From an uncultured Pseudomonadota bacterium (lineage in GTDB: Bacteria > Pseudomonadota > Gammaproteobacteria > Ga0077536), in assembly GCA_903825645.1 (NCBI GenBank), contig CAIKBL010000027.1, forward strand, positions 35,036-99,035: 64,000 nt of DNA. The letters are read 5' to 3'. The notes beneath the pieces are model-generated. The model was not told the origin of the DNA, did no database searches, and worked only from the letters and a program-made list of their open reading frames with translations. This document shows, in pieces, positions 7,187 through 31,100 of the stretch (positions within the stretch are counted from its first letter, which is position 1; each line of letters opens with the position of its first letter). The position numbers and the translations under genes were made by a program.

Positions 7187-8175
7187 GTGTAGTTGCCCCG
7201 GCCGATTTGAGGACTCGCGTAACGGAACAGAGTCACGAGACTCAACAGCAACAAGGCGGCCGTCCCGTTGTGCATGACTGCAACTGGGAGCGGTAAGCCG
7301 CGAAGCACGTTGGTGATGCCAAGCATGATCTGAAGCGCAAGCGCGGCGATTATACATGAGGCAATTCGGCGGCCGTGGATATCCGAGACACGCCGCGCGT
7401 AAGCGCAAAGTGCAAGAACCACCACCGCCGTCACCCCCGCGCCTAGCCGGTGCACGACATGAATGGCCGTGCGGGCAGGGGTGTCGAGAACGCCAAATTC
7501 GTAATTTATCCCGAGACCCCGCCAAAGGATAAAGGCATTGTGGAAATCTAGCTGTGGCCACCATTGGCCATGGCATTGTGGAAAATCCACACAGGCAAGC
7601 GCCGCATAATTAGCGCTCGTCCACCCACCCAAAAAAATCTGGCCGGCGAGGGTGACTATCGCAATGCCCGCGAAGCGCCGCAGGCCCTGACGGTTTTTCG
7701 CCCGCGGAAAAGCGCGAGAATCCAGAAAATTCCACCACAGGAGGGACAAAACGGTAAAACCACCGAATAAGTGGCCCACCACAATCAAGGGTTTTAGCAA
7801 CAGCGTCACGGTCCACATACCGAGCAGACCCTGAAACATCACCAACGGGACGAGCCACATCGGGATCGCCATCACGCGCTCGTGACGAACGAACCAGGCG
7901 GCAACCGCCAGCAGCAGTATCAGCGTGCCGAGCGAGGAGGCGAGATAGCGATGAATCATTTCACGCCAAGCCTTACCCGTCTCTAAGGGGCGAGCCGACA
8001 GTTGATCGCTTGGGATCTCGCGCGCCGCCGCCGGCACCAGCAAACGCCCGTAGCAGCCCGGCCAATCGGGACATCCTAGGCCCGCGTCGCTCAGCCGCAC
8101 ATAGGCGCCCTTGACGATGACGATAAGCGCCAACACCGGCAGAATGGCGGACAATAAAAAATAGAGTTTTCGCAT
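7183..8175 (-). CDS. ctaA: Heme A synthase CtaA/COX15
   Basis: 330 aa with multiple transmembrane helices and the conserved Cys pair (GCPDWPGC) and His residues of the COX15/CtaA family. Its position in the cox cluster is as expected. Confidence 0.8.
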   Translation of the reverse strand: MRKLYFLLSAILPVLALIVIVKGAYVRLSDAGLGCPDWPGCYGRLLVPAAAREIPSDQLSARPLETGKAWREMIHRYLASSLGTLILLLAVAAWFVRHERVMAIPMWLVPLVMFQGLLGMWTVTLLLKPLIVVGHLFGGFTVLSLLWWNFLDSRAFPRAKNRQGLRRFAGIAIVTLAGQIFLGGWTSANYAALACVDFPQCHGQWWPQLDFHNAFILWRGLGINYEFGVLDTPARTAIHVVHRLGAGVTAVVVLALCAYARRVSDIHGRRIASCIIAALALQIMLGITNVLRGLPLPVAVMHNGTAALLLLSLVTLFRYASPQIGRGNYT

Positions 8176-13141: not shown

Positions 13142-14029
13142 TTATTGGCGCTGGACCAGAAGGGACCCGGTAGCTACCGGTGAAGCACTGTTTGCGACAG
13201 GCGGCGCGGCTTGTTTATGGCCGGCGATCCACTTGTCGAATTCGGCTTCGGAAACAACGCGGATCACGATCGGCATGAAACCGTGGTCCTTGCCACAAAG
13301 GAGCGCGCATTGCCCGCGATATACCCCTTCTTTTTCGATTTTGGCCCAGGATTCGTTGATGTAACCCGGGATGGCATCGCGTTTCCAACCGAGCGCGGGG
13401 ACCCACCAAGAGTGAATCACGTCGCCGGCGGTGGTGAGAAAACGTATCTTCTTATTTACGGGTAGTACGATTTCGTTATCAACGTCCAGCAGATAATTCT
13501 CTACCGTCGTCGGGTCAATTCCAGAACCCAGTTGACGGGCGACGTTACTTTTCTGGGAAAGCGCGGCAAATACTTCAACACCGCGATCGAGGTACTCGTA
13601 ACGCCATCTCCACTGATAACCCGTCACCTTGATGGTCAGGTCGGACTTACCGACATCCTCCATCATGATAAGCGCCTTGGTGGCGGGAACAGCCATTGCG
13701 ATCAAAATGGCAAAAGGCACGATCGTCCATAGGACTTCAACGGTGGTACTTTCGTGCCACTGTGCTGCAACCGCCCCTTGCGATTTGCGAAATTTAAGAA
13801 TGGACAGAAAGATCGCGCCGAACACGACGATCCCGGTCACAACACAAACCCACAGGATCAACATGTGCAGGTTGTACACGATGTTGCTGTAGGGGGTGAC
13901 ACCCCGGGGAAGATTTAACTCCCAACTGGCATTCGCCATCGCCGGCAGCATCGCCAAAATCGACGCTAGGACAACACCCATGCGACCAGACCGTGTAATC
14001 AAACTCATCATGCTATTAGCTCCCCACAA
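13142..14029 (-). CDS. coxB: Cytochrome c oxidase subunit II
   Basis: Signal peptide and two transmembrane helices, CuA-site motif DVIHSWWVPALG, plus the Cys/His cluster. Confidence 0.9.
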   Translation of the reverse strand: MWGANSMMSLITRSGRMGVVLASILAMLPAMANASWELNLPRGVTPYSNIVYNLHMLILWVCVVTGIVVFGAIFLSILKFRKSQGAVAAQWHESTTVEVLWTIVPFAILIAMAVPATKALIMMEDVGKSDLTIKVTGYQWRWRYEYLDRGVEVFAALSQKSNVARQLGSGIDPTTVENYLLDVDNEIVLPVNKKIRFLTTAGDVIHSWWVPALGWKRDAIPGYINESWAKIEKEGVYRGQCALLCGKDHGFMPIVIRVVSEAEFDKWIAGHKQAAPPVANSASPVATGSLLVQRQ

Positions 14030-14141
14030 GCTCCCAAAGGTGCAGAATCACTCCGTCTCCACGCCCGCCACCCACCTAAGGGTCAGGTTCGATAGATTTA
14101 AAATCTCCGCGCCGTGCCGGGGGACGTTCATCCGGCGCATT

Positions 14142-14651
14142 CTAACGGGTTTTCTCGATGGCGTTAATCAATGCGCGCGCCAATTCAACGCGCTCAGCCT
14201 CTGTGAGGAAATCGCCGAGACTTACCTCGCGCCCGTGCGACGTAAGACTCAAGCGGCTTGGGTACCAAGCATACGGCGCTCCCCGGAGTTGGATTCTCAC
14301 CCAACCGCGATCAAATCGGTAGGTTTCAATGGGCCGATGTCGACCTTTTTCAACAACGACTTGACTCTCCTCAAGCTTCACTACCTCACGCCACTGGCCG
14401 GTATAGCTCACGTAGTAGAACGCCGCCCACAGCAAAAGTACTTCAAGACCGGCGAACGGTAGGACCAAGGGGACGCCGCAGGCCAAGAAAAGAAGACCAC
14501 TCGTCGCCGGCACTAGGCTCAGCAAATAGAGCCACCGTTTAGCTTGAACCCAGGTGAGTGCCCGATGCGGTCGGATAATCCAGACCTGCGGCGTCTCCAC
14601 GGTTGCACTAGACGTCGCCTGCGCGGAGGATATCGAGGTCTGGTGCGTCAC
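14142..14651 (-). CDS. Small integral membrane protein associated with cytochrome oxidase (DUF2244-like)
   Basis: 169 aa with two transmembrane helices and a soluble C-terminal domain. It lies immediately upstream of coxB, a conserved neighbourhood in Pseudomonas-type cox clusters. Confidence 0.45.
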   Translation of the reverse strand: MTHQTSISSAQATSSATVETPQVWIIRPHRALTWVQAKRWLYLLSLVPATSGLLFLACGVPLVLPFAGLEVLLLWAAFYYVSYTGQWREVVKLEESQVVVEKGRHRPIETYRFDRGWVRIQLRGAPYAWYPSRLSLTSHGREVSLGDFLTEAERVELARALINAIEKTR

Positions 14652-15325
14652 TGCACACCATCGAAAACGCGAGCCACCTCTCGCAAATGCTGATCAAAAG
14701 CCGACGCCGTCACCACGCTCATGCAAGGGATCTGTCCCAGGCAGGGAGCAGGCACTCGAGTTTCAATGGCCTCGATAATGGGGTTTGCATAGGCGTACGT
14801 AGGGTCCAGCACATTGGCAACCCACCCTGCGAGTTGGCAGCCGTCCCGCAGGATGGCCTCTACCGTGAGCAAGGTGTGATTGAGGGCGCCGAGCCTAATG
14901 CCCGCGACCAAAATCACGGGTAACTGCCAACGCTTGACTAAATCAGCCGCGCTCAGCGAGTCACTCAGCGGAATGCGCCAACCGCCTATGCCCTCAACGA
15001 GAACGATTTCGGCCACGTCAGTCAACGATCGAAAAGCCGCTTCGAGCGGCGGCCACTCGATCAAACGATGTTCCAAGCGCGCGGCGATGTGAGGGGCTGT
15101 TGGGGCCCGGAAAAGATAGGAGTTCAGATCCGCAACTGCCAAGCCGGGCCACGAGGCGTCTGTGAGCGCCTCTACGTCTTCGTTCAGGTTCCGGAGATCC
15201 GTGCCGGCTGCAATAGGCTTCATACCGGCCGCGCGGATCCCGCGGCTTTTCAGGATCCTGAGCAAGCCGCAAGTCACAGCGGTTTTACCGACTGCGGTAT
15301 CCGTTCCTGCGATAAAGGCATTCAT
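14648..15325 (-). CDS. bioD: Dethiobiotin synthetase BioD
   Basis: MNAFIAGTDTAVGKT P-loop at the chosen start. The ORF-track N-terminal extension is rejected. It is the last gene of the bio operon. Confidence 0.8.
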   Translation of the reverse strand: MNAFIAGTDTAVGKTAVTCGLLRILKSRGIRAAGMKPIAAGTDLRNLNEDVEALTDASWPGLAVADLNSYLFRAPTAPHIAARLEHRLIEWPPLEAAFRSLTDVAEIVLVEGIGGWRIPLSDSLSAADLVKRWQLPVILVAGIRLGALNHTLLTVEAILRDGCQLAGWVANVLDPTYAYANPIIEAIETRVPAPCLGQIPCMSVVTASAFDQHLREVARVFDGVQ

Positions 15326-16206
15326 GGCGCTCGCCGAGTCAGTTGGTGAAGCGGAAAAGTCGACACCGTGCTGCCATCCTGCGCCCGCGCATTCGGCAAG
15401 GGTTTCCAAGCGTGACCGAAAACTACCTCGAAGGTCGCCGGCAGGCAACCCGCCTCCCGACGTGGTTCATACGCTTTTGCCAAGGCGTTAAAGGTTGAGC
15501 GTCCGGTGAGGCCTTGAGCACGGCTGATATGACTGTTGCGGGCCCCGGTACCCCGCAGATCACGCAGCAAGCCCTGCAGTTCGGTATAAGTCAGCGTTAT
15601 ATTGTCGCGGTCGAGGACTGGTGCGGAGAAGCCGCTGCGAATAAGGACATCTCCGACATCATGCATGTCCAAAAAAAAGCCGACGTGGGGATGCTGGTCG
15701 ACGCGCGCCCAGGCTTCGCGAAGTTCGGACAAGGTCCCGGGTCCAAATGTCGAGAAAATGAATAATCCACCCGGCCGCAGCACGCGCTGACATTCGGAAA
15801 ACACCGCCGCGAGATCTTCGCACCAAGGCAGCACGAGATTAGAGAACACGAGATCAACCATCCCATCGGGCAAGCTAAGATGAGCAGCATCAGCGCAACA
15901 AAAAAGCGCCCGGGAGAACCAACGCCGCTTTTGGTTGCGGGCCTTTTCCAGCATAGCGGACGCAATATCAACCAGCAGAATACGCGCCGATCCGTACCGT
16001 TTTTCCAGTAACCGGGCGCTGTGACCGGTACCTGCGCCCAAATCCATGACGAGCGCGGGTTCGATTTGCATGTACGCCAGTCGTTCGAACAACCGTTCAC
16101 CGATCTCCCGATGAAGTACCGCGTATTCGTCGAAGGTGCGCGCTGCGCGATTAAAGGCGCGCCGGACGTTTCCGGCGGCCTGTTGCTTTGGCGGTGTTTC
16201 AGGCAT
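15322..16206 (-). CDS. bioC: Malonyl-ACP O-methyltransferase BioC
   Basis: SAM methyltransferase motif VMDLGAGTGHSARLL. A start at 16206 gives an 8-nt overlap with bioF; the alternative start at 16266 overlaps by 68 nt. Confidence 0.7.
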   Translation of the reverse strand: MPETPPKQQAAGNVRRAFNRAARTFDEYAVLHREIGERLFERLAYMQIEPALVMDLGAGTGHSARLLEKRYGSARILLVDIASAMLEKARNQKRRWFSRALFCCADAAHLSLPDGMVDLVFSNLVLPWCEDLAAVFSECQRVLRPGGLFIFSTFGPGTLSELREAWARVDQHPHVGFFLDMHDVGDVLIRSGFSAPVLDRDNITLTYTELQGLLRDLRGTGARNSHISRAQGLTGRSTFNALAKAYEPRREAGCLPATFEVVFGHAWKPLPNARAQDGSTVSTFPLHQLTRRAP

Positions 16207-17383
16207 CCGCTTTGCCGAGTTGGAATTGAGTTCGGTATTGCGCCAAGGCGTCCACCAACTGGTCAAGATGTCTTGATTCGTGCACCGCGCTGATGCAAAT
16301 ACGTAAACGGGCCGTACCTAGCGGTACCGTTGGTGGCCGGATAGCACGCACATACAGTCCTTTTTCGCGCAAACCTGCGGCAATTTTAAGCGCGGCCCCA
16401 CCCTCGCCAACCCACAGCGGCTGAATGGGAGTGTGGCTGCCAGACAAGGGAAGACCGGTCACATGCGCGGCTGCCCGAAAATATTCTATGTTTTTAATTA
16501 GTTGACGGTGACGTTGGTCATCTGTCGTGGCCAGATGTATGGCCGCTGTCGTCGCAAAGGCCAGCGCGGGCGAAGACGCGGTGTCGTAAATAAACGGGCG
16601 GGAGCGCTGGATAATGTTGTCGATAAGCACGGCCGGGCCGATTACTGCCGCCCCCATCGTGCCCAAGGCCTTTCCAAAGGTGACCATCAACAAGGGCACA
16701 TCATCCTGATTTAGTCCGAAATGCGCGAGGATCCCGCGGCCACCGGCGAGGACGCCAAAACCATGCGCATCGTCGCAGATCAGCATTGCGCGATGGCGCG
16801 CAGCGAGCGCCGCAATTTGTGGGAGTCGAGCCAAATCGCCGTCCATGCTGAACACGCCATCGGTGACCACCCAAGTGCGTTCGGGAAGAGCGCCCTCGAG
16901 CGCTGTCGCCAAAGCATGCATGTCCCCGTGGGGATAACGGACGTTTTTTGCGCGCGACAGGCGAACCCCATCGATGAGAGAAGCATGATTGAGTTCGTCG
17001 GAAATGACCGTTTCATCACGCGAAATCAGCCCGGACAAAAGACCCAGATTGGCCATATAACCGGAAGAAAAAACGACGGCACGATCGCGGCCCGTTACCC
17101 GAGCCAAGGTTTCGGCAAGTGCGTCATGTGCCTCACTGTAGCCAGAAAGTAGGGCTGCGGCGCCGGCGCCGGCACCGTAACGCCGCGCCCCTTCCTGCAG
17201 CGCGCTCACGATCTCTGGATGATTTGCTAACCCGAGGTAATCGTTGCTACAGAAATTCAGGAGTCGCTGCCCGTTGATCGCTATTTGGGCCCCTTGTGGC
17301 GTGGAAAGGGCTTCGAGCGCTCGGGTACCTTCCGCGCGCGCTATCTCCGAAAGTTTAGCCTCGAACCTGGCATAGGAAGGCAT
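16199..17383 (-). CDS. bioF: 8-amino-7-oxononanoate synthase BioF
   Basis: PLP-dependent class II aminotransferase with the PLP-lysine motif TFGKALG and a DDAHGFG segment. Confidence 0.85.
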   Translation of the reverse strand: MPSYARFEAKLSEIARAEGTRALEALSTPQGAQIAINGQRLLNFCSNDYLGLANHPEIVSALQEGARRYGAGAGAAALLSGYSEAHDALAETLARVTGRDRAVVFSSGYMANLGLLSGLISRDETVISDELNHASLIDGVRLSRAKNVRYPHGDMHALATALEGALPERTWVVTDGVFSMDGDLARLPQIAALAARHRAMLICDDAHGFGVLAGGRGILAHFGLNQDDVPLLMVTFGKALGTMGAAVIGPAVLIDNIIQRSRPFIYDTASSPALAFATTAAIHLATTDDQRHRQLIKNIEYFRAAAHVTGLPLSGSHTPIQPLWVGEGGAALKIAAGLREKGLYVRAIRPPTVPLGTARLRICISAVHESRHLDQLVDALAQYRTQFQLGKADA

Positions 17384-17389
17384 TTGTGC

Positions 17390-18421
17390 CTACCCATGCG
17401 CGGCAGTCGCGGTTGTAAGACCGATGCGGTCAAACAAGTGGCGATCGTCAAGGGTCAGTGGATTGTCGGTTGTGAGTAATTGCTCGCCATAAAAAATAGA
17501 GTTGGCACCCGCGAAGAAACACAGTGCCTGCGCTTCGTCAGTCATCTCCTGGCGACCCGCGGATAATCTGACAAAAGACTTGGGCATCATGATGCGGGCC
17601 GTGGCGACGGTGCGCACCATCTCGAAACTGTCAATTTTAGGCTGCGCTTCGAGGGGCGTCCCTTTGACGCGAACCAACATGTTGATGGGCACGCTCTCGG
17701 GCTGCGTCGGCATGTTCGCCAAGGTACAGAGGAGGCTGGCGCGGTCCTCGATGGTCTCGCCCATCCCAATGATACCGCCACAACAAACGTTGATCCCGGC
17801 GTCACGCACGGAGGCCAACGTGTCCAGGCGGTCTTGATAAGTACGCGTGGAGATCACGGTGCCATAGAATTCCGGCGAGGTATCGAGGTTGTGGTTATAG
17901 TAATCCAAACCCGCGTCCTTGAGTTTTGCTGCATGCTCCGGGCGCAGCATTCCCAACGTAACGCAGGTCTCCATTCCGAGGTTTTTCACGGCCTGGATCA
18001 GCGGGATAACCTGGTCGAGATCTTTGTCTTTGGGCGCGCGCCAAGCTGCACCCATACAGAACCGCGTAGCGCCGGCTTCGCGCGCGGCGAGAGCGGCCTT
18101 GGCCACGGTCGCCACATCCAGCAGCCCGCTCGCCTGAACATCGGTTTCGAAACGCGCGCTCTGCGGACAGTAACCGCAGTCTTCCGGGCAACCACCTGAC
18201 TTGATGTTTAGCAGGGTGCTGAGCTGTACCTGATTCGGATTGAAATGCGTGCGGTGTATGCTCTGGGCTTTGAACAAGAGCTCCATGAGCGGCAGACGAA
18301 GGAGCGTCGCCGCTTCGAGCACAGTCCAGTTCTCTTGCGCGGCTTCAGCGTGGCGTAGCCTGTTTTTTTCTTCTTGAAGACTCTGTACCGACATGTCAGG
18401 ACTCCGGAAATAGCGATGCAA
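17390..18421 (-). CDS. bioB: Biotin synthase BioB
   Basis: Radical-SAM CxxxCxxC motif [11 protein letters not shown]. The start could instead be the internal MSVQS. Confidence 0.9.
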
Positions 18422-18964: not shown

Positions 18965-19126
18965 TTAGATGGGCCAGGCTTCGATCAGCACAGTGGCCAG
19001 GATTTGCGCTGGCATCGCCTTCGGGGTTAGCACATCGACCTTGACGCCGAGGAGCTGACGACGCTCGTCGTGAATGGCCGCTTCCAGCGAGGCACCGGGG
19101 GTCACCTCGGCTTTACAAGCGAATTA
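18965..19126 (-). pseudogene. MntA-type nucleotidyltransferase antitoxin C-terminal fragment
   Basis: Reverse-strand translation KAEVTPGASLEAAIHDERRQLLGVKVDVLTPKAMPAQILATVLIEAWPI*. The N-terminal nucleotidyltransferase catalytic motif is absent. It lies directly upstream of the HepT fragment, the canonical antitoxin-toxin order. Confidence 0.5.
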
Positions 19127-19143
19127 GACAGACGAGGTTTAAA

Positions 19144-19187
19144 GCTGACAGCCCTTTTCGCAACATGCGGGCGAAAAAGGCTGTCAG
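19144..19187. terminator. Long imperfect hairpin downstream of the gyrB stop
   Basis: GCTGACAGCC(c)TTTT ... AAAA(a)GGCTGTCAG inverted repeat immediately 3' of gyrB on the minus strand. There is no clean T-run, so its role as a terminator is uncertain. Confidence 0.35.
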
Positions 19188-19198
19188 ACCATCTTTCT

Positions 19199-22718
<3,520 letters not shown>

Positions 22719-22756
22719 TCTCGCGTCTATTTGGAGAAGTGAGGATCGTCTTTAAT

Positions 22757-23857
22757 TCAGAGCCGCATCGGCATAACGACATACTTCGCGCCCGATTCCT
22801 TTCCAGCCTGAATCAGACAACTACTATTCGAGTCGGATAAGACAAAACGTATAGTGTCTCCTTGCAGGACGCTAAGAACGTCCAACAAGTAAGAGACGTT
22901 GAAACCAATCTCTAGAGGCTCCCCGTCGTAGCTAACCTCGATTTCTTCTTCTGCTTCTTCCTGCTCCGGATTATGCGCGGAGGCCTTTAAAACGCCCTTA
23001 CCAAAGTTAAGCCGGACACCCCTGAATTTTTCATTAGACAATATCGACGTTCGCTGCAGCGCTGATTTTGTGGTTTCGCGATCTGCTTCAATAATCTTGT
23101 CGCCGCCCTTAGGTAACACACGCTCGTAATCTGGATATTTTCCATCGACCAGTTTAACGGTTAAGGTCTGGTTCAAGACGGATACGCGCAGCACGTTAGC
23201 GGATATGCCCACGTCGATGGGTGCTGTCGTATGACTCGCTAAGCGCTGAATTTCATTAACCCCTTTACGAGGCACAATCAGCTGGCGGGTTTCTTTCAGA
23301 TCCAAGGGCATCGAATGTTCATTTAAGGCTAACCGATGGCCGTCGGTTGCTACCGCCTTAATCGACGTTTCATTAAGTTCCAGCAACAGCCCGTTCAAAT
23401 AATACCGAACGTCCTCGTGTGCCATGGCGAACTGGGTGCTGGCTATGAGTCCTTGCAATACAGCGCTGTCGATCGTGAACGCGATTTCATCCGTCGCATA
23501 TCCAATGCTAGGGTAATCGGTGGCGGGCAAGGTAGACAGGACAAATCGACTGCGGCCGGATTGAATTCTTATTTTTTTGTCTTTTTCCTCAATCTGCACG
23601 AGGGACTGAGCTGGTAGAGAACGACAAATATCGAGCAGTTTTCGGCCCGATACCGTTAGAACACCTTCCTGGCTAATTTTCGCTACGCTTCGCGCGACCG
23701 CTTCAACTTCCTGATCTGTCGCCGTAATGCTGACGTTCTCCCCTTCCGCTGCAAAAAGCACATTACTAAGTATTGAACCCGTCTGTCGTTTCTCGACGAT
23801 GTTCGCGACAGCCTGAAGTGCTAGCAACAGGTTTTCTCTTTCAATACTTATCTTCAT
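22757..23857 (-). CDS. dnaN: DNA polymerase III beta sliding clamp
   Basis: 366 aa with N-terminus MKISIERENLLLALQAVANIVEKRQT and C-terminus ...MPMRL. Confidence 0.9.
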   Translation of the reverse strand: MKISIERENLLLALQAVANIVEKRQTGSILSNVLFAAEGENVSITATDQEVEAVARSVAKISQEGVLTVSGRKLLDICRSLPAQSLVQIEEKDKKIRIQSGRSRFVLSTLPATDYPSIGYATDEIAFTIDSAVLQGLIASTQFAMAHEDVRYYLNGLLLELNETSIKAVATDGHRLALNEHSMPLDLKETRQLIVPRKGVNEIQRLASHTTAPIDVGISANVLRVSVLNQTLTVKLVDGKYPDYERVLPKGGDKIIEADRETTKSALQRTSILSNEKFRGVRLNFGKGVLKASAHNPEQEEAEEEIEVSYDGEPLEIGFNVSYLLDVLSVLQGDTIRFVLSDSNSSCLIQAGKESGAKYVVMPMRL

Positions 23858-24044
23858 CTTAGTATTAGTTCTATTTAAAGTTAGTAGTTGTAGTAATTAA
23901 ACGGGGGCATAAGTCTAATAGTTATTTTTTTCTTTATAAAACATGTTGATACAACGTATTTTTTGAACGAAAAAAATGTAAAAGTGACGTTGGACCTGTG
24001 GATAACTTGGTGTAACTGAATATCGACACTTAAACCGACCCAAG
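23858..24044. promoter_or_regulatory. AT-rich (about 30% GC) dnaA-dnaN spacer carrying a perfect DnaA box (TTATCCACA at about 23997-24005 on the minus strand); candidate DNA-unwinding or origin-associated element
   Basis: Read from the sequence as ...cctgTGTGGATAActtgg. The flanking A/T-rich runs contrast sharply with the roughly 60% GC of the window. Confidence 0.45.
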
Positions 24045-25400
24045 TTAGCTGCTCAGTATTCTCTCGAGATTGACAAAATCCTCATTGATTTTGTTCTCGG
24101 CGTGCCGCAGCTCCACAATTTTTCTGCACGCATGAATGACAGTAGTATGGTCTCTCCCGCCGAAGGCATCACCAATTTCCGGAAGACTATGATTAGTAAG
24201 CTCTTTTGATAAAGCCATCGCTATCTGTCGCGGTCTTGCAATAGACCGGTTACGGCGTTTCGAGACTAAGTCCGAGACGCGCATCTTGTAATATTCCGCC
24301 ACTGTTTTCTGAATGTTCTCGATGGAGATAAGTTTATCCTGTAGCGCTAACAAATCCTTTAACGCTTCGCGGGCAAAATCAATCGTGATTAAACTGCCTG
24401 AGAAGTGAGCGTTTGCTTCCATTCTATGTAAGGCGCCTTCTAGCTCCCTGATATTCGAACGAAAACGTTTGGCGACGAAAAAAGCCACTTCGTGAGGCAG
24501 CTGCAACCCACTTCGCTCCGCTTTGCTCATCAGGATAGCCACACGGGTTTCGAGTTCTGGCGGCTCTATTGCCACGGTTAGACCCCAACCGAATCGTGAC
24601 TTAAGACGCTCCTCGACACCGATGACCTCTCGCGGATAACGGTCACAGGTCAAAATTATTTGCTGTTGACTTTCAAGTAACGCATTGAAAGTATGAAAAA
24701 ATTCCTCCTGGGAACGTTCTTTTCCTGCAAAAAATTGAATATCATCAATAAGCAAAGCATCTAGGGTTCGATACTTTCTTTTAAATTCGTTGATGGAGTT
24801 GTGTTGCAGCGCCCGAACCATGTCACCCACAAATTTTTCGGAATGGATGTACTGAACCTTGGCATTCGGTTTGCGACTGACGACTAGATTCCCTATCGCC
24901 TGCATGAGATGGGTTTTACCCAACCCGACCCCGCCACAGATGAATAGCGGGTTGTACGCTTTTCCTGGATTTTCAGCCACTTGGAGAGAAGCAGCACGCG
25001 CGAGTTGATTGGATTTGCCTTCGACAAAACTCTCAAAGGAAAAATCTCTCTTCAACCCTTTACTTGGTGGCCCACGCCTAGCGCTATCTGCGGGGGGAGG
25101 GACACCAGGTAGAGGGTCCGGCGTTCGCGCGACCTCAACCTCGGTGGCTTCCGCAACATCGGTGACGACAAACCCAACTTTATCTACGCCACCTTTCGAG
25201 AGATCGCGGGCGACATCTTCTATTTTACGGCCGTATTTATCTCGGACCCATTCACAGACAAACTTGTTAGGCGCCGATACCGTGAGGGTCGAACCCTGCA
25301 CGTAGGCGCTTAGCGGGCGGATCCACGTGTTGTATTGCTGAGGCGTCAGATCGCCTTCCAATATACGCAGAACGGTCGGCCAGGAAAGCGTCATGGGCAT
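24045..25400 (-). CDS. dnaA: Chromosomal replication initiator DnaA
   Basis: 451 aa with the AAA+ Walker [17 protein letters not shown], DnaA box-binding domain IV, and N-terminus WIRPL. Confidence 0.95.
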
Positions 25401-25466
25401 CCAAGGAGGGTTAGTGGCGCCGGTAGAGACACCGACAACCCCCGATTCTAACGGGCGACACCAAAG

Positions 25467-25475
25467 TTATCCACA
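25467..25475. promoter_or_regulatory. Perfect DnaA box TTATCCACA in the dnaA-rpmH divergent promoter region
   Basis: Exact 9-mer. A consensus -35 hexamer TTGACA lies about 10 nt downstream (about 25486-25491), oriented toward rpmH. Confidence 0.6.
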
Positions 25476-25574
25476 GCACGACAAATTGACAGACTTGATG
25501 CCCCGCTAATACCATTGCCCGCCCGCGACTGCAGACGATGTCGCGTCGCCGCTAATTAAATTAAGGTTCCCGTC

Positions 25575-25712
25575 ATGAAAAGAACATATCAACCCAGTAA
25601 GTTAAAGCGTGCCCGTACGCATGGCTTCCGCGCCCGCATGAGCACGAAAGGCGGACGACGGGTGTTGAAGTCGCGCCGCGCGAAAGGCAGAGCCAGACTT
25701 ACGCCGGTTTAA
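25575..25712 (+). CDS. rpmH: 50S ribosomal protein L34
   Basis: 45 aa, [45 protein letters not shown]. It is below the ORF-track size cutoff. Confidence 0.85.
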
Positions 25713-25716
25713 GCCA

Positions 25717-26082
25717 ATCACCGGGTTACCCCGTGAAGCTAGGTTAAGCGGAGGCGATACTTACCTCCGTTTATTCCGAACGGGTCGGCGGTTTCGAACG
25801 ACATACTTCAATGTTTTCATTGCAGGCGGTCGCACCTCGGCCACTAGACTCGGTATCGCCGTATCCAAGCGCATGGTTGCCCGTGCGGTGAATCGCAATC
25901 GGATAAAACGCATTATCCGAGAAACGTTTCGTTCAAATTCACAACGCCTTGGCGGCAGCGATCTTATCGTGCAGGTCAATGCGCCCGCTGGCCGAGCGAG
26001 CTCGGAGAGTCTTTTCCTAGCGCTTCGAGAGCTGTGTGACCAAGTAGTTCAGACTCTAGACCCTATCAATCGCCCGACCTGA
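25717..26082 (+). CDS. rnpA: RNase P protein component RnpA; the start codon is unresolved
   Basis: The in-frame translation ...PREARLSGGDTYLRLFRTGRRFRTTYFNVFIAGGRTSATRLGIAVSKRMVARAVNRNRIKR... aligns with RnpA from about residue 8 onward. No ATG, GTG or TTG is in frame between the upstream stop (about 25666) and the homologous region, so the 5' coordinate is approximate. Confidence 0.7.
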   Translation: MTGLPREARLSGGDTYLRLFRTGRRFRTTYFNVFIAGGRTSATRLGIAVSKRMVARAVNRNRIKRIIRETFRSNSQRLGGSDLIVQVNAPAGRASSESLFLALRELCDQVVQTLDPINRPT

Positions 26083-26092
26083 TATTTTCACT

Positions 26093-27721
26093 ATGGAACA
26101 ACTACGACTGATTCTACTGGTAGCGTTGAGCTTCCTTTCACTCATGTTATGGGAAGCTTGGCAGCGCGATTACGTTTCGCCGCCCCCGATAGCTGAGATG
26201 CCCCAGGCCGCGACCGCGGTATCCAGTGCAAATACGACCCCAGACATTCCTTCGAAATCTACCGCAATACCCGCTGCAGCCGCCGCGCCGGGGTCAGCAA
26301 CACCCAATGCCTTTGTAGACGTCGAGACAGACGTCCTCAAACTCCGAATTAACCTTACCGGTGGTGTTATCGAACAAGCAGGTCTTCTGCATTACCCCAC
26401 CGATGGTGAAACCGATCAATCGCCCTACAAGTTGCTGGACAATTCCGCAGAGCGATTTTTCATCCATCAAAGTGGGTTAAAGGCAGAGAAAGCGGAGAGC
26501 GCAGATCACTACGCGCGCTTCACTGCACCGCAGACCCGCTATGTGCTCGCGCCGGGCGAAGAGTCGCTGAATATAGAACTGTCGTGGACGTCCGTAGCTG
26601 GCGTGAATGTGCGTAAGCAGTTCGTCCTCAAGCGAGGAGATTACACGGTTGGTATCAACTATGCGGTGCATAACGCCAGTAACGACAACTGGGTTTTTCA
26701 CCACTACGACCAATTACAAAGGACCGAACGCAAAGTCCGCCAGTATTTTATCCAGACCTTCACGGGCGCAGCGCTGTCTTCACCGGAAACACGCTATGCT
26801 AAATTTGCTTTCAAGAAACTGAAAGATGAACCGATTAACCAAGACATCACCAATGGTTGGACAGCGATCCTAGAGCATTATTTCGTTTCCGCGATTATCC
26901 CGACATCAAAAAAATCCTATCACTACTATTCAACCATTATTGGTGAAAGTAATTACGCCGTAGGGTTCTACGGTCCCGCACAGACGGTCGCCCCAGGCGC
27001 GAGTGATTCAATTGAAAGTAGCCTTTATATAGGTCCCAAGCTTCAGAATATTCTGAAAACCGTAGCGCCAGGATTAGATCTCACCGTCGACTATGGTGTC
27101 CTCTGGTTCATTGGCCAGATCCTTTTCTGGACCCTAGGTAAAGCACACACCCTATCGGGTAACTGGGGCTGGTCGATTGTATTGCTGACCTGTGTTGTGA
27201 AAGGAGTCTTTTTCCCTCTCTCGGCTGCCGGCTACCGATCGATGGCGAGAATGCGCCGGGTCCAACCGCGTCTTTTGGCCATCCGGGAGCGTTTCCAGAA
27301 CGACCGCGCAGCGCTCAATCAGGCCATGATGGAACTGTATAAGACGGAAAAAATTAACCCTCTCGGTGGCTGTCTGCCGATCGTTATTCAAATCCCCGTT
27401 TTCATCGCGCTCTATTGGGTGATTCTAGAGAGCGTCGAACTACGTCAAGCGCCGTTTGTTTTTTGGATAAAGGATCTTTCCATCAAAGATCCACATTTTG
27501 TGCTGCCCGTGCTGATGACCATCAGTATGTGGCTTCAATCAAAGTTGAACCCTGCTCCGACGGATCCCATACAGGCCCGGGTGATGCAGATCATGCCCTT
27601 CGCTTTCGGCACTTTCTTTGCGTTCTTCCCCGCGGCGCTGGTTCTTTATTGGTTTGTGAACAACTGCCTGTCGATTAGCCAGCAGTGGTTAATCACGCGA
27701 GCCATGGAACGCAGCGCTTAA
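26093..27721 (+). CDS. yidC: Membrane protein insertase YidC
   Basis: 542 aa with an N-terminal transmembrane helix, a large periplasmic domain, and the conserved C-terminal five-transmembrane core (NPLGGCLP). Confidence 0.95.
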   Translation: MEQLRLILLVALSFLSLMLWEAWQRDYVSPPPIAEMPQAATAVSSANTTPDIPSKSTAIPAAAAAPGSATPNAFVDVETDVLKLRINLTGGVIEQAGLLHYPTDGETDQSPYKLLDNSAERFFIHQSGLKAEKAESADHYARFTAPQTRYVLAPGEESLNIELSWTSVAGVNVRKQFVLKRGDYTVGINYAVHNASNDNWVFHHYDQLQRTERKVRQYFIQTFTGAALSSPETRYAKFAFKKLKDEPINQDITNGWTAILEHYFVSAIIPTSKKSYHYYSTIIGESNYAVGFYGPAQTVAPGASDSIESSLYIGPKLQNILKTVAPGLDLTVDYGVLWFIGQILFWTLGKAHTLSGNWGWSIVLLTCVVKGVFFPLSAAGYRSMARMRRVQPRLLAIRERFQNDRAALNQAMMELYKTEKINPLGGCLPIVIQIPVFIALYWVILESVELRQAPFVFWIKDLSIKDPHFVLPVLMTISMWLQSKLNPAPTDPIQARVMQIMPFAFGTFFAFFPAALVLYWFVNNCLSISQQWLITRAMERSA

Positions 27722-27729
27722 CGGTAGCG

Positions 27730-29076
27730 ATGAATGCTACTCAGACTATTGCCGCTGTCGCGACAGCTAGCGGCCGCGGCGCTATAGGCATTGTTAGGCT
27801 TTCTGGAGATCGCGCGCGCGATATTGCGACACGCATCGTCAAACAGTTGCCGCCGCCGCGGTATGCGGCACTAAGACATTTCTATCGCGAAGACAAAGAC
27901 ACCATCGACCGGGGCCTGATTATTTATTTTCCAGGACCTGCTTCGTATACCGGCGAAGATATGGTTGAGTTCCACACGCACGGTGGCCCCGCCGTCATAC
28001 GCGAACTCATGCAAACGCTGTATGCCGCGGGAGCCGTTCCTGCCCGTCCGGGAGAGTTCACTGAAAGAGCGTTCCTGAATGGGAAGCTCGATCTTCTCCA
28101 GGCAGAGGCAGTCGCCGATTTAATAAGTGTAAGTACGCAACGGGGATTACGCTCGGCAAATCTAGCGATTACGGGACACTTTTCGAACACCATCAATAGT
28201 ATCGCCGCCCAGCTAAAGAATATCCGCGCTGAATTAGAAGCCACGATAGATTTCGGCGACGAGGCGTCTGTCAACGTAGAGGTCGACCACTTAATCAACC
28301 CCCTCCTATCCGTGACGGCTGACGTATCGTTACTTCTCGAACGCGCGCATAAGGGCGCTCGTCTTGCGCGGGGCGTCCGGGTCGTTCTCGTCGGACCGCC
28401 TAATGTCGGCAAGTCGACGCTGCTGAACGCCCTCTCTGGACAGGAGCGCGCCATCGTAAGCGATGTGCCTGGCACGACGCGTGATGTCCTCAGTACGGAA
28501 ATCGATATCGGCGGTGTACTGATCACCCTGCTGGACACAGCAGGGTTGCGTGTGGCGCGAGAAGAAATAGAGCGGGAGGGAATCCGTCGAGCGCTGAAGG
28601 AAGTACAGGCTGCTGATTTGATCCTTTGGCTTTATGAAGCGACCGAGGCTTTTCCCAACATCAGAGATTTTCTACCCGAAGAGGAAGCGCTGCCGGACAC
28701 CATCATTTACGTCCGTACTAAAATTGATGCGCTAGGGGAACTCCCGGACAGCCGAGTGGTGCAGGGTTGCCAAGAGATAAGTCTAGCGGCACGACATGCC
28801 AAAGGGCTCGATTTGTTACGTGATGCTATTGCTCACGCGATGGCCATCGAAGACGAGGGCGATTGTCCACTGTTGGCGCGCGAGCGACACCTACAGGCAC
28901 TAGCGACCGCCCATAAAATGCTCTCTTTTACGTCGCCCGCTGATTTTGTAAATGATCCGGCCGAGTCAGCCGAACGTCTCAGGATTGCGCATGATGCGCT
29001 GCGAGAATTGACTGGAGAGTTTACGACGGAAGATCTTTTGGGCGAAATATTTTCGAAATTCTGTATCGGAAAATAA
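27730..29076 (+). CDS. mnmE: tRNA modification GTPase MnmE (TrmE)
   Basis: G-domain motifs GPPNVGKSTLLN and DTAG, with the C-terminal CIGK motif. The start is taken at the internal Met MNATQTIAAVATA. Confidence 0.9.
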   Translation: MNATQTIAAVATASGRGAIGIVRLSGDRARDIATRIVKQLPPPRYAALRHFYREDKDTIDRGLIIYFPGPASYTGEDMVEFHTHGGPAVIRELMQTLYAAGAVPARPGEFTERAFLNGKLDLLQAEAVADLISVSTQRGLRSANLAITGHFSNTINSIAAQLKNIRAELEATIDFGDEASVNVEVDHLINPLLSVTADVSLLLERAHKGARLARGVRVVLVGPPNVGKSTLLNALSGQERAIVSDVPGTTRDVLSTEIDIGGVLITLLDTAGLRVAREEIEREGIRRALKEVQAADLILWLYEATEAFPNIRDFLPEEEALPDTIIYVRTKIDALGELPDSRVVQGCQEISLAARHAKGLDLLRDAIAHAMAIEDEGDCPLLARERHLQALATAHKMLSFTSPADFVNDPAESAERLRIAHDALRELTGEFTTEDLLGEIFSKFCIGK

Positions 29077-29505
29077 CAAGGTTTTGCGACCGACGCCGAA
29101 GCGCTCCGCTCCACACACATTTTTTTACAAAACCACTACTCAAAAGGGCCACGCCTTACGGATAGGGGTACCGGCAGGCGTAATCGTTCAATGTCTAGAA
29201 GGTTTTCTCTGACACCTGGGCGATTTTCGAGGACTCACATGTGATTCGTGTGCCTCTGCCGGTGGACAGAAAAAACACGGTAACCTAGGGAGGTTATGCT
29301 AAAAATTCTAGCTTTTTCTTCCAATCCCCCCTCCTATAATATTTAACGAATTGATTCATGTGAGCCAATGCCTAAGGAAGAAGCCCCGACGCTAAACGGC
29401 AAGAAGCCAGGGAGCCGATAGCGCTCGTCGTATTAGATTTCGAGCGGTTTAATTACCATAATGTTCACGCCGCATCGATAGGAGCGGTGAAGGACGGGAA
29501 TATTC

Positions 29506-29898
29506 ATGACTGTGCGTATAGAGATCTCCTTTGGTGAGTTAGTCGACAGACTCACTATTTTGGAAATCAAGGCATCGCGAATTGAAGCGCCACTTAAATT
29601 GGTTAATATTCGAGAAGAACTTGCTTCCCTAAGCAAGAGTTGGGTAGAGAGTGTAGGACCAGAGATATCACCCGATATTTTTAAGATCCGGCAAGCGTTG
29701 AAGCGCGTCAATGAGATCTTGTGGGATGTCGAAGATGCGATTAGAGATCATGAGCGGAATAAAAATTTCGGAGAATCGTTCATCGAACTTGCCCGAAAGG
29801 TCTATGTTACAAACGATGAAAGGGCTCAGCTGAAAAAGCGTATTGATGCCCTCATGGGATCTCGATTCAGTGAAGAGAAATCATATCGCGCCTATTGA
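29506..29898 (+). CDS. Hypothetical alpha-helical protein of unknown function, low-GC gene
   Basis: 130-aa ORF (MTVRIEISFGELVDRLTILEIK...) with about 43% GC in a roughly 60% GC genome. A perfect TATAAT hexamer lies about 170 nt upstream. No recognisable domain could be assigned. Confidence 0.4.
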   Translation: MTVRIEISFGELVDRLTILEIKASRIEAPLKLVNIREELASLSKSWVESVGPEISPDIFKIRQALKRVNEILWDVEDAIRDHERNKNFGESFIELARKVYVTNDERAQLKKRIDALMGSRFSEEKSYRAY

Positions 29899-30197
29899 CG
29901 TGATTTTGATATTTATCCGGGTCTTTACAGTCCTACTGAGCGCCGAAAAAATCGGCGGCGTTTCTTTTAAGCCTCAGCTAATGGGTAGGTTACCAATGTT
30001 TCAGAAAGCGGTTCCTGCTGCGCGGTCTCAGGCGCATCAAGGGATGGAAAGGGTAAAAAGAACGCATTGTATCCTGGCGTTGGCGTCACGGACGTCAGCG
30101 CTGGCCGCAAACAAATGGCGTATCGCGCAACGAAAGAATAACCCGGTTAATCAGGCCGAAGCTGTGCTGGAAAATGTTTGGCGCTGAGGGAGCGGGA

Positions 30198-31100
30198 ATG
30201 CCGCGTCTGCTGTTTATCACGTTGAGTAATATCGGCGATTTGGTTTTGACCACACCAGCGCTGGAAGCGCTCCATCACGGTTATCCCGATCACCTGATAG
30301 ACGTCGTCGCGGATACCCGATCCAGTGTGCTGCTACGCGCTTGCCCGTATCTCGGTACGCTCTATCATCGCCAGAAATCTGACGGGATCCGCGGTTTGCT
30401 GGGCTTGGTTACCGAACTCCGAAAACGTCGTTACACCGCCATTGTCGATTTAAGGACCGATTATCTGCCTTGGTTACTTCGCGGTGATCGGCGGGCCAGC
30501 CGCTGGCGCCGACCGCCACACGGTATTCACGCGGTCGAGCAGCATTTCGCCATCACCTCTCAAGTATTTCCTTTTGCCGTTGCCTTACCGGTCACGCGGG
30601 TTTGGGTCTCGCCGGAGGACATTGCTAGCGCCAAAACCCTATTGGCGAAGAAGACACGGGGTCGTTGGTTAGCGCTCGCACCAGGCGCCAACTGGGCCGG
30701 CAAAATTTGGCCGGTGAGCCATTTTGCGGCGCTGGTAGCTGCTGTCACCGATATTTTTGATGGTGTCATTATTCTCGGCAGCCCACCGGATGCGGTTGCG
30801 GCGGAAATCTTGATTGAAAATTGCCCGCTACCCTGCCTCAATGTTGTGGGAAAGACTTCACTTACAGTGGCTGCCGCGGTGTGTGACGAGGTGGACGCGT
30901 TTGTTGGAAATGACTCGGGCCTTGGACATATCGCGGCTGCACGAGGGATCCCCACGCTGACCTTGTTTGGTCCTGGTCGCCCAGATCGTTATGTGCCGTG
31001 GGGACCTAAAGCGAGTCGTGTTTTGGCGCCGGCAGAGGATCTGAAAGCTCTCCAAGCGCCAGTTGTCGGCGCTGCGCTGCGTGCGCTTCTTGCCCGTTGA
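30198..31100 (+). CDS. Glycosyltransferase family 9 (ADP-heptose:LPS heptosyltransferase, WaaC/WaaF/WaaQ-like)
   Basis: N-terminus MPRLLFITLSNIGDLVLTTPALEAL and a GT9 C-terminal domain (GNDSGLGHIAAA). An RBS GAGGGAG lies upstream. Confidence 0.75.
   Translation: MPRLLFITLSNIGDLVLTTPALEALHHGYPDHLIDVVADTRSSVLLRACPYLGTLYHRQKSDGIRGLLGLVTELRKRRYTAIVDLRTDYLPWLLRGDRRASRWRRPPHGIHAVEQHFAITSQVFPFAVALPVTRVWVSPEDIASAKTLLAKKTRGRWLALAPGANWAGKIWPVSHFAALVAAVTDIFDGVIILGSPPDAVAAEILIENCPLPCLNVVGKTSLTVAAAVCDEVDAFVGNDSGLGHIAAARGIPTLTLFGPGRPDRYVPWGPKASRVLAPAEDLKALQAPVVGAALRALLAR

Follow-up and report, generated by a model that had tools for sequence, protein, structure and literature searches.

A candidate compact replication origin between dnaA and dnaN in an uncultured gammaproteobacterium

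Where does replication begin in an uncultured gammaproteobacterium whose dnaA gene is bordered by a short spacer on one side and an AT-rich spacer on the other? The question is raised by a stretch of 64,000 nucleotides (hereafter the window) from contig CAIKBL010000027.1 of an uncultured Pseudomonadota bacterium (Gammaproteobacteria; Ga0077536; assembly GCA_903825645.1), in which NCBIfam models identify the gene order gyrB-recF-dnaN-dnaA on the minus strand, followed by rpmH-rnpA-yidC-mnmE on the plus strand. A preliminary description of this DNA had considered three locations for the origin of replication (oriC): split across dnaA, with its unwinding element between dnaA and dnaN, or elsewhere in the genome, for example near mnmG. 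Our analysis favors the second of these. We think it fairly likely that the window carries a compact, box-poor oriC of the dnaA-dnaN type (23858-24044) and, separately, an autoregulatory box on the dnaA promoter. Judged by its sequence features, this origin is probably of a known kind, the dnaA-dnaN type of Xanthomonas. For an uncultured lineage of gammaproteobacteria, an argued placement of the origin helps in choosing genome start coordinates, describing replichore structure and estimating growth rate from metagenome coverage.

DnaA boxes and unstable DNA between dnaA and dnaN

The 64 kb contain two perfect copies of the DnaA box TTATCCACA and no more, one in each spacer flanking dnaA: 23997-24005 on the minus strand and 25467-25475 on the plus strand. 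Only 0.18 copies are expected per 64 kb and 1 of 100 shuffles gave two; both boxes fall within the 361 bp that flank dnaA (0.56% of the window), for which simple arithmetic gives a chance probability of ~3e-5. The placement of the two boxes around dnaA is not a chance pattern. Both are also conserved in relatives, a set of eleven loci with 63-77% DnaN identity assembled from a protein search and contig lookups. The earlier report of one perfect box in each spacer holds. The preliminary description had further suggested scanning both spacers for relaxed boxes. At ≤2 mismatches this recovered three boxes in the dnaA-dnaN spacer and one in the rpmH-dnaA spacer, but no dense cluster. For the dnaA-dnaN spacer the three boxes compare with ~0.4 expected per 187 bp (estimated from the 145 such boxes counted across the 64 kb), and two more sites are found there at 3 mismatches. 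The other intergenic gaps of the window contain no box at ≤2 mismatches. As a caveat to any origin call, no dense DnaA-box cluster occurs anywhere in the window, and no 500-bp bin is significant at ≤2 mismatches.

At each of the scales tried (50-187 bp), moreover, no stretch of the window is richer in AT or less stable than the dnaA-dnaN spacer. Its GC content is 31%, compared with ~58% elsewhere in the window, and over 100 bp its AT content reaches 76%. The nearest-neighbour dG at that scale is -109.7 kcal/mol, where the window averages -150.8 (standard deviation 8.0). Read in the direction of dnaA transcription, along which positions inside the spacer are counted in Table 1 and which leads to dnaN as the next gene, the spacer holds first a reverse-oriented box and then, 14 bp on, the perfect forward box. 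These form a reverse-then-forward pair just past the dnaA stop codon. An AT-rich core with weak forward boxes comes next, then a short GC cluster overlapped by one more weak forward box, and finally, in DNA of 20% GC, two tandem AT-rich repeats that stop 1 nt short of the dnaN start codon. Each 21-nt repeat carries a 3-nt-periodic run resembling DnaA-trios. The complement of the run in the first repeat, 3'-AAT GAT GTT GAT GAT-5', fits [G/A]AT in four of its five triplets but is interrupted, and it is flanked by DNA of 20% GC. Both dnaA-flanking spacers lack GATC, although the window has 6.4 copies of the motif per kb, and clustering of the Dam/SeqA type is therefore absent from them.

This arrangement suggests a possible course of initiation. 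DnaA would first bind the high-affinity site TTATCCACAGG (23995-24005) together with its weak, oppositely oriented partner past the dnaA stop. It may then oligomerize towards dnaN over the weak sites of the same orientation at 23944-23952, 23931-23939 and 23904-23912. In the last step the 20%-GC stretch beside dnaN would open; this stretch carries the periodic element ATTACTACAAC, tandemly duplicated at 23859-23901, and we propose these repeats as the unwinding site.

The candidate elements can be followed in relatives, even though these are fairly distant: the best DnaA identity in the genome collection was 70% and the best DnaN identity in metagenomes 56%, in each case among the matches listed. 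All relatives that cover the region combine a short rpmH-dnaA spacer with an AT-rich dnaA-dnaN spacer of 143-190 bp. Of the 10 clade spacers that cover its site, 9 keep the forward box (conserved sequence TTATCCACAGG) at ≤1 mismatch. Six relatives have TTAATTACTACAAC, or a sequence close to it, 25-40 nt ahead of the dnaN ATG; it is kept in L084-L087 and L169, where the rest of the spacer can hardly be aligned, and several relatives keep the 3-nt-periodic ATTACTACAAC element at this place. The tandem duplication of the trio-like element is particular to the window, with one copy in the relatives, and appears in the alignment as a 12-nt insertion. A near-identical contig of another sample (L081) differs from the window by one base in the spacer, which turns TTATAAAGA into TTAGAAAGA. 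The change falls in the 3-mismatch box at 23931-23939, which suggests that this site is not strictly constrained.

Two further patterns in this DNA were given no role in the proposed origin. An imperfect AT-rich palindrome at 23925-23975, around GTATCAACA, is not more stably folded than expected (z -1.8). The 500-bp bin at 7501-8000 holds five boxes at ≤2 mismatches, but it is mostly coding and ~0.7 such bins are expected by chance under a Poisson model, so it was rejected as a box cluster. Across the window as a whole, boxes with ≤1 mismatch are over-represented (17 found, 7.75 expected with a standard deviation of 2.5, and no shuffle reached 17), most of them inside genes, for example at 16618, 16929, 21378, 26748 and 27462.

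The predicted divergent rpmH-dnaA promoter region

The second perfect box would seem to have a different function. A promoter scan over 23700-25750 returned exactly two sigma-70-like sites, both in the rpmH-dnaA spacer and facing outward, one towards rpmH and one towards dnaA. No site in the dnaA-dnaN spacer rose above the scan threshold. The TTGACA that had been proposed as the rpmH -35 is part of the rpmH-facing site, at 25486-25491, and the -35 of the predicted dnaA promoter lies inside the perfect box. When seven relatives were aligned, the conserved blocks were the rpmH -10 region, TGTCAATTT (the rpmH -35), TGTGGATAAC (the box) and TAGA(A/C)T (the dnaA -10), the last located 15-16 nt beyond TGTGGATAAC, with both of these invariant in all seven. 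Because the box overlaps the dnaA -35, it resembles an autoregulatory operator rather than an origin element, and it most likely mediates repression of dnaA by its own product. Conserved promoter elements and a single operator fill the spacer, and we therefore read it as a divergent promoter region with predicted DnaA self-repression. Autoregulation by DnaA is known from the dnaA promoter region of E. coli. The similarity lies in the consensus box within the dnaA promoter, which in the window sits between the divergent rpmH and dnaA units, while the window differs in having a single box placed directly over the -35 of a single predicted promoter.

The gene layout around these spacers is as the preliminary description gave it. 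Left of dnaA, coding is 90% on the minus strand, and right of it 65% on the plus strand, so the claimed flip at dnaA/rpmH and the co-oriented blocks on both sides are borne out, and the lengths reported for the two spacers (~174 bp, and 187 bp at ~30% GC) agree with our measurements of 174 bp, and 187 bp at 31% GC. The dnaA start codon is probably the second ATG, at 25394, giving a protein of 449 amino acids, since homologues align from residue 7 onward and a 449-amino-acid product is called on a contig of the same species. The rpmH-dnaA spacer would then measure 180 bp. An exact-sequence lookup of the 451-amino-acid DnaA found no match, probably because the annotated start differs, whereas the DnaN lookup did match. 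Neither of the two dnaA ATGs, nor that of dnaN, is preceded by a visible Shine-Dalgarno-like sequence, and Rfam and tRNA scans of the 64 kb returned no matches.

Table 1. Genes and sequence elements around dnaA in the window (functional labels of intergenic elements are predictions)
Feature	Position	Strand	Details
gyrB	19199-21595	-	NCBIfam
recF	21600-22718	-	NCBIfam
dnaN (DNA polymerase III beta clamp)	22757-23857	-	TIGR00663, E 2.9e-102
dnaN-dnaA spacer, candidate oriC (DnaA boxes and unwinding region)	23858-24044		187 bp, 31% GC
Two tandem 21-nt AT-rich repeats	23859-23879 and 23881-23901 (spacer 144-186)	-	Period 22, 76% identity
Conserved DnaA-trio-like element TTAATTACTACAAC	23882-23900	-	Extended as TTA CTA CAA CTA CTA
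Short GC cluster GCCCCCG	23902-23908	-	Upstream of the trio-like run
Forward DnaA box TTATGCCCC	23904-23912 (spacer 133-141)		3 mismatches; overlaps GCCCCCG
AT-rich core	23911-23984 (spacer 61-134)		20% GC; holds GTATCAACA and TTATAAAGA
Weak forward DnaA box TTATAAAGA	23931-23939		3 mismatches; in AT-rich core
Weak forward DnaA box GTATCAACA	23944-23952		2 mismatches; in AT-rich core
Perfect forward DnaA box TTATCCACA	23997-24005 (spacer 40-48)	-	Points towards dnaN; conserved as TTATCCACAGG (23995-24005)
Reverse-oriented DnaA box TGTCGATAT (ATATCGACA on the plus strand)	24020-24028 (spacer 17-25)	+	2 mismatches
dnaA (replication initiator)	24045-25400	-	TIGR00362, E 1.3e-174
dnaA-rpmH spacer	25401-25574		174 bp, 56% GC
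dnaA promoter-like site TGGATA-17-TAGAAT	25445-25473	-	Promoter scan
Perfect DnaA box, candidate autoregulatory operator	25467-25475	+	Overlaps the dnaA promoter -35
rpmH promoter-like site TTGACA-18-TACCAT	25486-25515	+	Promoter scan; both hexamer regions conserved in relatives
rpmH (ribosomal protein L34), first of the divergent rpmH-rnpA-yidC-mnmE block	25575-25712	+	TIGR01030, E 3.3e-24
rnpA	ends 26082	+	NCBIfam
yidC	26093-27721	+	NCBIfam
mnmE	27685-29076	+	NCBIfam

Comparison with other gammaproteobacterial loci and studied origins

The preliminary description had measured this locus against Pseudomonas and found it unusual. To place the layout more broadly, we compared it with 162 gammaproteobacterial loci. 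Length of the dnaA-dnaN spacer is bimodal across this set, at ≤60 bp in 81 loci, 61-139 bp in 17 and ≥140 bp in 64, although relatives of the window are over-represented in the sample and the fractions are not population estimates. Short dnaA-dnaN spacers accompany long, box-rich rpmH-dnaA spacers in the Pseudomonas, Halomonas and Shewanella-like loci, and enteric loci likewise have short dnaA-dnaN spacers. The long, relatively AT-rich dnaA-dnaN spacers are paired with rpmH-dnaA spacers of ~130-390 bp and include loci from the Lysobacterales, Steroidobacteraceae and Chromatiaceae and from many metagenome-assembled genomes. Outside the enteric and Pseudomonas groups, then, a short rpmH-dnaA spacer with an AT-rich dnaA-dnaN spacer of 140-280 bp is common in much of the Gammaproteobacteria. 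Since the layout is this common, that of the window is no anomaly; Pseudomonas was the wrong reference class for the lineage.

The long-spacer loci resemble the window in more than length. A reverse-then-forward box pair past the dnaA stop occurs in 49 of 62 long spacers, as it does in the window, compared with 2.7% of shuffles; we derived this class feature from these same loci and it is not a published criterion. In many of them a forward box, a short GC cluster (ggccc) and a 3-nt-periodic run before dnaN follow, and ATTACTACA is present (≤1 mismatch) in 13 of the 64 long spacers where 2.4 would be expected. Pair gaps in the long spacers of loci L001-L172 are concentrated in three groups, 14-16 bp in 14 loci, 25-27 bp in 18 and 37-38 bp in 8, forming an ~11-bp ladder with steps of one helical turn. 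Quantized box-pair spacing and the compact, box-poor form of the candidate could both interest origin specialists, and neither overturns known facts.

Among studied origins the closest parallel is that of Xanthomonas (X. campestris and X. citri), for which PMC8453159, citing the functional study of Yen et al. 2002, places conserved oriC DnaA boxes between dnaA and dnaN. The window is alike in having its oriC candidate at this position within a full gene cluster, a short rpmH-dnaA spacer, a long and relatively AT-rich dnaA-dnaN spacer and few consensus boxes. In the work of Yen et al. of 2002 the minimal Xanthomonas origin is reportedly 273 bp with three boxes. The Lysobacterales loci of our set resemble the window in three features: a reverse-then-forward pair past the dnaA stop, an AT-rich center and, ahead of dnaN, a 3-nt-periodic run. 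They differ from it in several respects: their spacers measure 211-369 bp rather than 187 bp; they carry 1-2 perfect boxes plus several near-consensus ones, where the window has one perfect box; and the window lacks a recognizable box directly upstream of the periodic run. The perfect box on the dnaA promoter is likewise found in the window and not in the Lysobacterales loci.

A second point of reference is the basal unwinding system (BUS), in which DnaA boxes stand beside DnaA-trios and an AT-rich stretch (PMC8287927, PMC6669920), the trios having the consensus 3'-GAT-5' (PMC8287927). As in incC/BUS of Bacillus subtilis (DnaA boxes 6 and 7), the elements in the window lie between dnaA and dnaN with a forward box directed towards dnaN, and their order is the same, with a short GC cluster, a periodic run and AT-rich DNA next to dnaN. 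Unlike B. subtilis, the window has no box (≤2 mismatches) up to 16 bp away from the run and lacks three consecutive NAN trios in register. It also has far fewer boxes, with no upstream cluster like incAB. The remaining models fit less well. Pseudomonas shares with the window the conserved gene cluster and the TTATCCACA box sequence, but Pseudomonas-like loci have rpmH-dnaA spacers of 411-719 bp with several boxes and dnaA-dnaN spacers of 20-75 bp, the reverse of the window. An E. coli-type oriC, next to mnmG at a distance from dnaA and with 13-mers and a GATC-rich box array, does not correspond to this locus, in which lipopolysaccharide (LPS) genes follow mnmE.

GC skew and competing placements of the origin

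GC skew brings the origin to this part of the window. Cumulative GC skew bottoms out at 28311, and the breakpoint of a two-line fit falls at 26800. Skew at third codon positions (GC3 skew, plus strand) is negative in recF and dnaN, near zero from dnaA through mnmE, and uniformly positive from 29.5 kb rightwards, including the minus-strand genes at 35.7-44.6 kb. Together these patterns indicate a switch between ~24 and 29.5 kb, which puts the origin in the neighborhood of dnaA but does not resolve which intergenic gap it occupies. Counts of FtsK-orienting polar sequences (KOPS, GGGNAGGG) in the window were too low to use.

Several observations weigh against placing oriC in the dnaA-dnaN spacer. 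The skew minimum is 4 kb to the right of it, and a 429-bp gap after mnmE (29077-29505) fits the skew equally well or better. The spacer has only one strong box and two with 2 mismatches, compared with the 5-19 DnaA boxes carried by studied origins (PMC4285127), and the reverse box of its pair is undetectable in the closest relatives, L084-L087. The published BUS rule asks for three or more consecutive 3'-NAN-5' trios, correctly oriented, with a box of ≤2 mismatches 0-16 bp away (PMC8287927); no such combination is found within the dnaA-dnaN spacer, where 46 bp separate the trio-like element from the nearest forward box (≤2 mismatches). The rule also fires on 27% of shuffled spacers, so passing or failing it carries little weight. 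Finally, the element conserved ahead of dnaN might serve that gene as a promoter or leader instead, with TAGACTTA as a candidate dnaN -10. The only BUS-rule match that we encountered, through TTATCTTCA over the dnaN start codon, was rejected because its "box" consists of the MKI codons and is not conserved.

A rival reading puts oriC in another place, which could be the 429-bp gap itself or a site beyond the window (for example beside mnmG), in which case the dnaA-dnaN spacer would be only a DnaA-regulated promoter or leader region of dnaN. We consider such a placement unlikely. It would account for the skew minimum at 28311, for a GC3 skew that is clearly positive only from 29.5 kb, and for a spacer with few boxes that fails the BUS rule; the visible sequence is, moreover, just 64 kb of the genome, and E. 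coli shows that dnaA and oriC are separable (PMC4285127). However, the gap after mnmE is only moderately AT-rich and has no box at ≤2 mismatches, no 500-bp bin anywhere in the window contains a significant box cluster, and the promoter scan gave no site in the dnaA-dnaN spacer. The layout of this spacer matches a class whose origin has been placed between dnaA and dnaN (PMC8453159). A distant origin is made unlikely by the turn of the skew inside the window, and the suggested position near mnmG finds no support, given that mnmG is not next to mnmE and that the other gaps are free of boxes. The genes downstream of mnmE encode an LPS heptosyltransferase and O-antigen ligase-like and DsbA-like proteins.

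A dnaA-dnaN origin could also take a more unusual form than that of Xanthomonas. The clade may use an exceptionally small origin of 143-190 bp, with a single high-affinity box and a conserved trio-like unwinding element 46-105 bp from the recognizable boxes, although we regard this as improbable. If true, it would exceed the 16-bp limit between box and trio in the published BUS rule, and unwinding would need either growth of a DnaA filament over very weak sites or looping, rather than a box adjacent to the trios.

The perfect boxes on either side of dnaA, both conserved in the clade, raise the further possibility that the preliminary description had called a split origin: a bipartite oriC in which the rpmH-dnaA box region and the dnaA-dnaN spacer act together across dnaA, with the DNA unwinding element downstream, as modeled on incAB/incC of Bacillus subtilis and oriC1/oriC2 of Helicobacter pylori. 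The dnaA-dnaN spacer by itself has few boxes, and in B. subtilis a distal box can act by looping, in either orientation, over 132-462 bp (PMC6669920). The two boxes of the window are 1462 bp apart, beyond the distances tested there. In bipartite origins, moreover, both subregions contain clustered boxes (PMC4285127), whereas the upstream part of the window has one box and the downstream part one perfect and two weak boxes. The upstream box lies exactly on the dnaA -35, where autoregulation explains it, and Lysobacterales loci that are alike downstream (L066, L069, L072-L077) do without any upstream box. A bipartite origin therefore has little in its favor and we consider it doubtful.

An origin of the Pseudomonas type in the rpmH-dnaA spacer is very hard to credit: the position is that of oriC in P. 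putida and P. aeruginosa (Yee and Smith 1990, as cited in PMC4285127) and the spacer has one perfect box, but Pseudomonas-like loci have 1-5 perfect boxes there (up to 9 with ≤1 mismatch) in 411-719 bp, while the 174-180 bp of the window, at 56% GC close to the genome average, hold just one box, are AT-rich only in the rpmH leader and are accounted for by two conserved divergent promoters.

Among the locations that the preliminary description had considered, we thus favor an origin between dnaA and dnaN, which is consistent with the extreme AT-rich, low-stability point found there, with a conserved box architecture and with the Xanthomonas precedent.

The sequence around the candidate also has compositional features of its own. 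The non-coding gap at 29077-29505 after mnmE, moderately AT-rich and free of DnaA boxes at ≤2 mismatches, gave no Rfam match. It is followed by an open reading frame of 130 amino acids (gap and frame together lie in 29077-29898), which is assigned to DUF6165/DUF4254 and combines 44% GC with a strong positive GC skew. From gyrB to the first heptosyltransferase (~19000-31000) the GC content is 46-54%, compared with 56-62% on either side, and GC3 in the same block is ~0.50-0.57 versus 0.60-0.74 in the flanks. Further to the left, the bio genes (bioF and bioB among them) at 13142-18421 on the minus strand have a positive GC3 skew of +0.05 to +0.09 (plus strand), even though they are on the left side of the presumed origin and that of their neighbors is negative, a pattern that may reflect a past inversion or transfer of this block.

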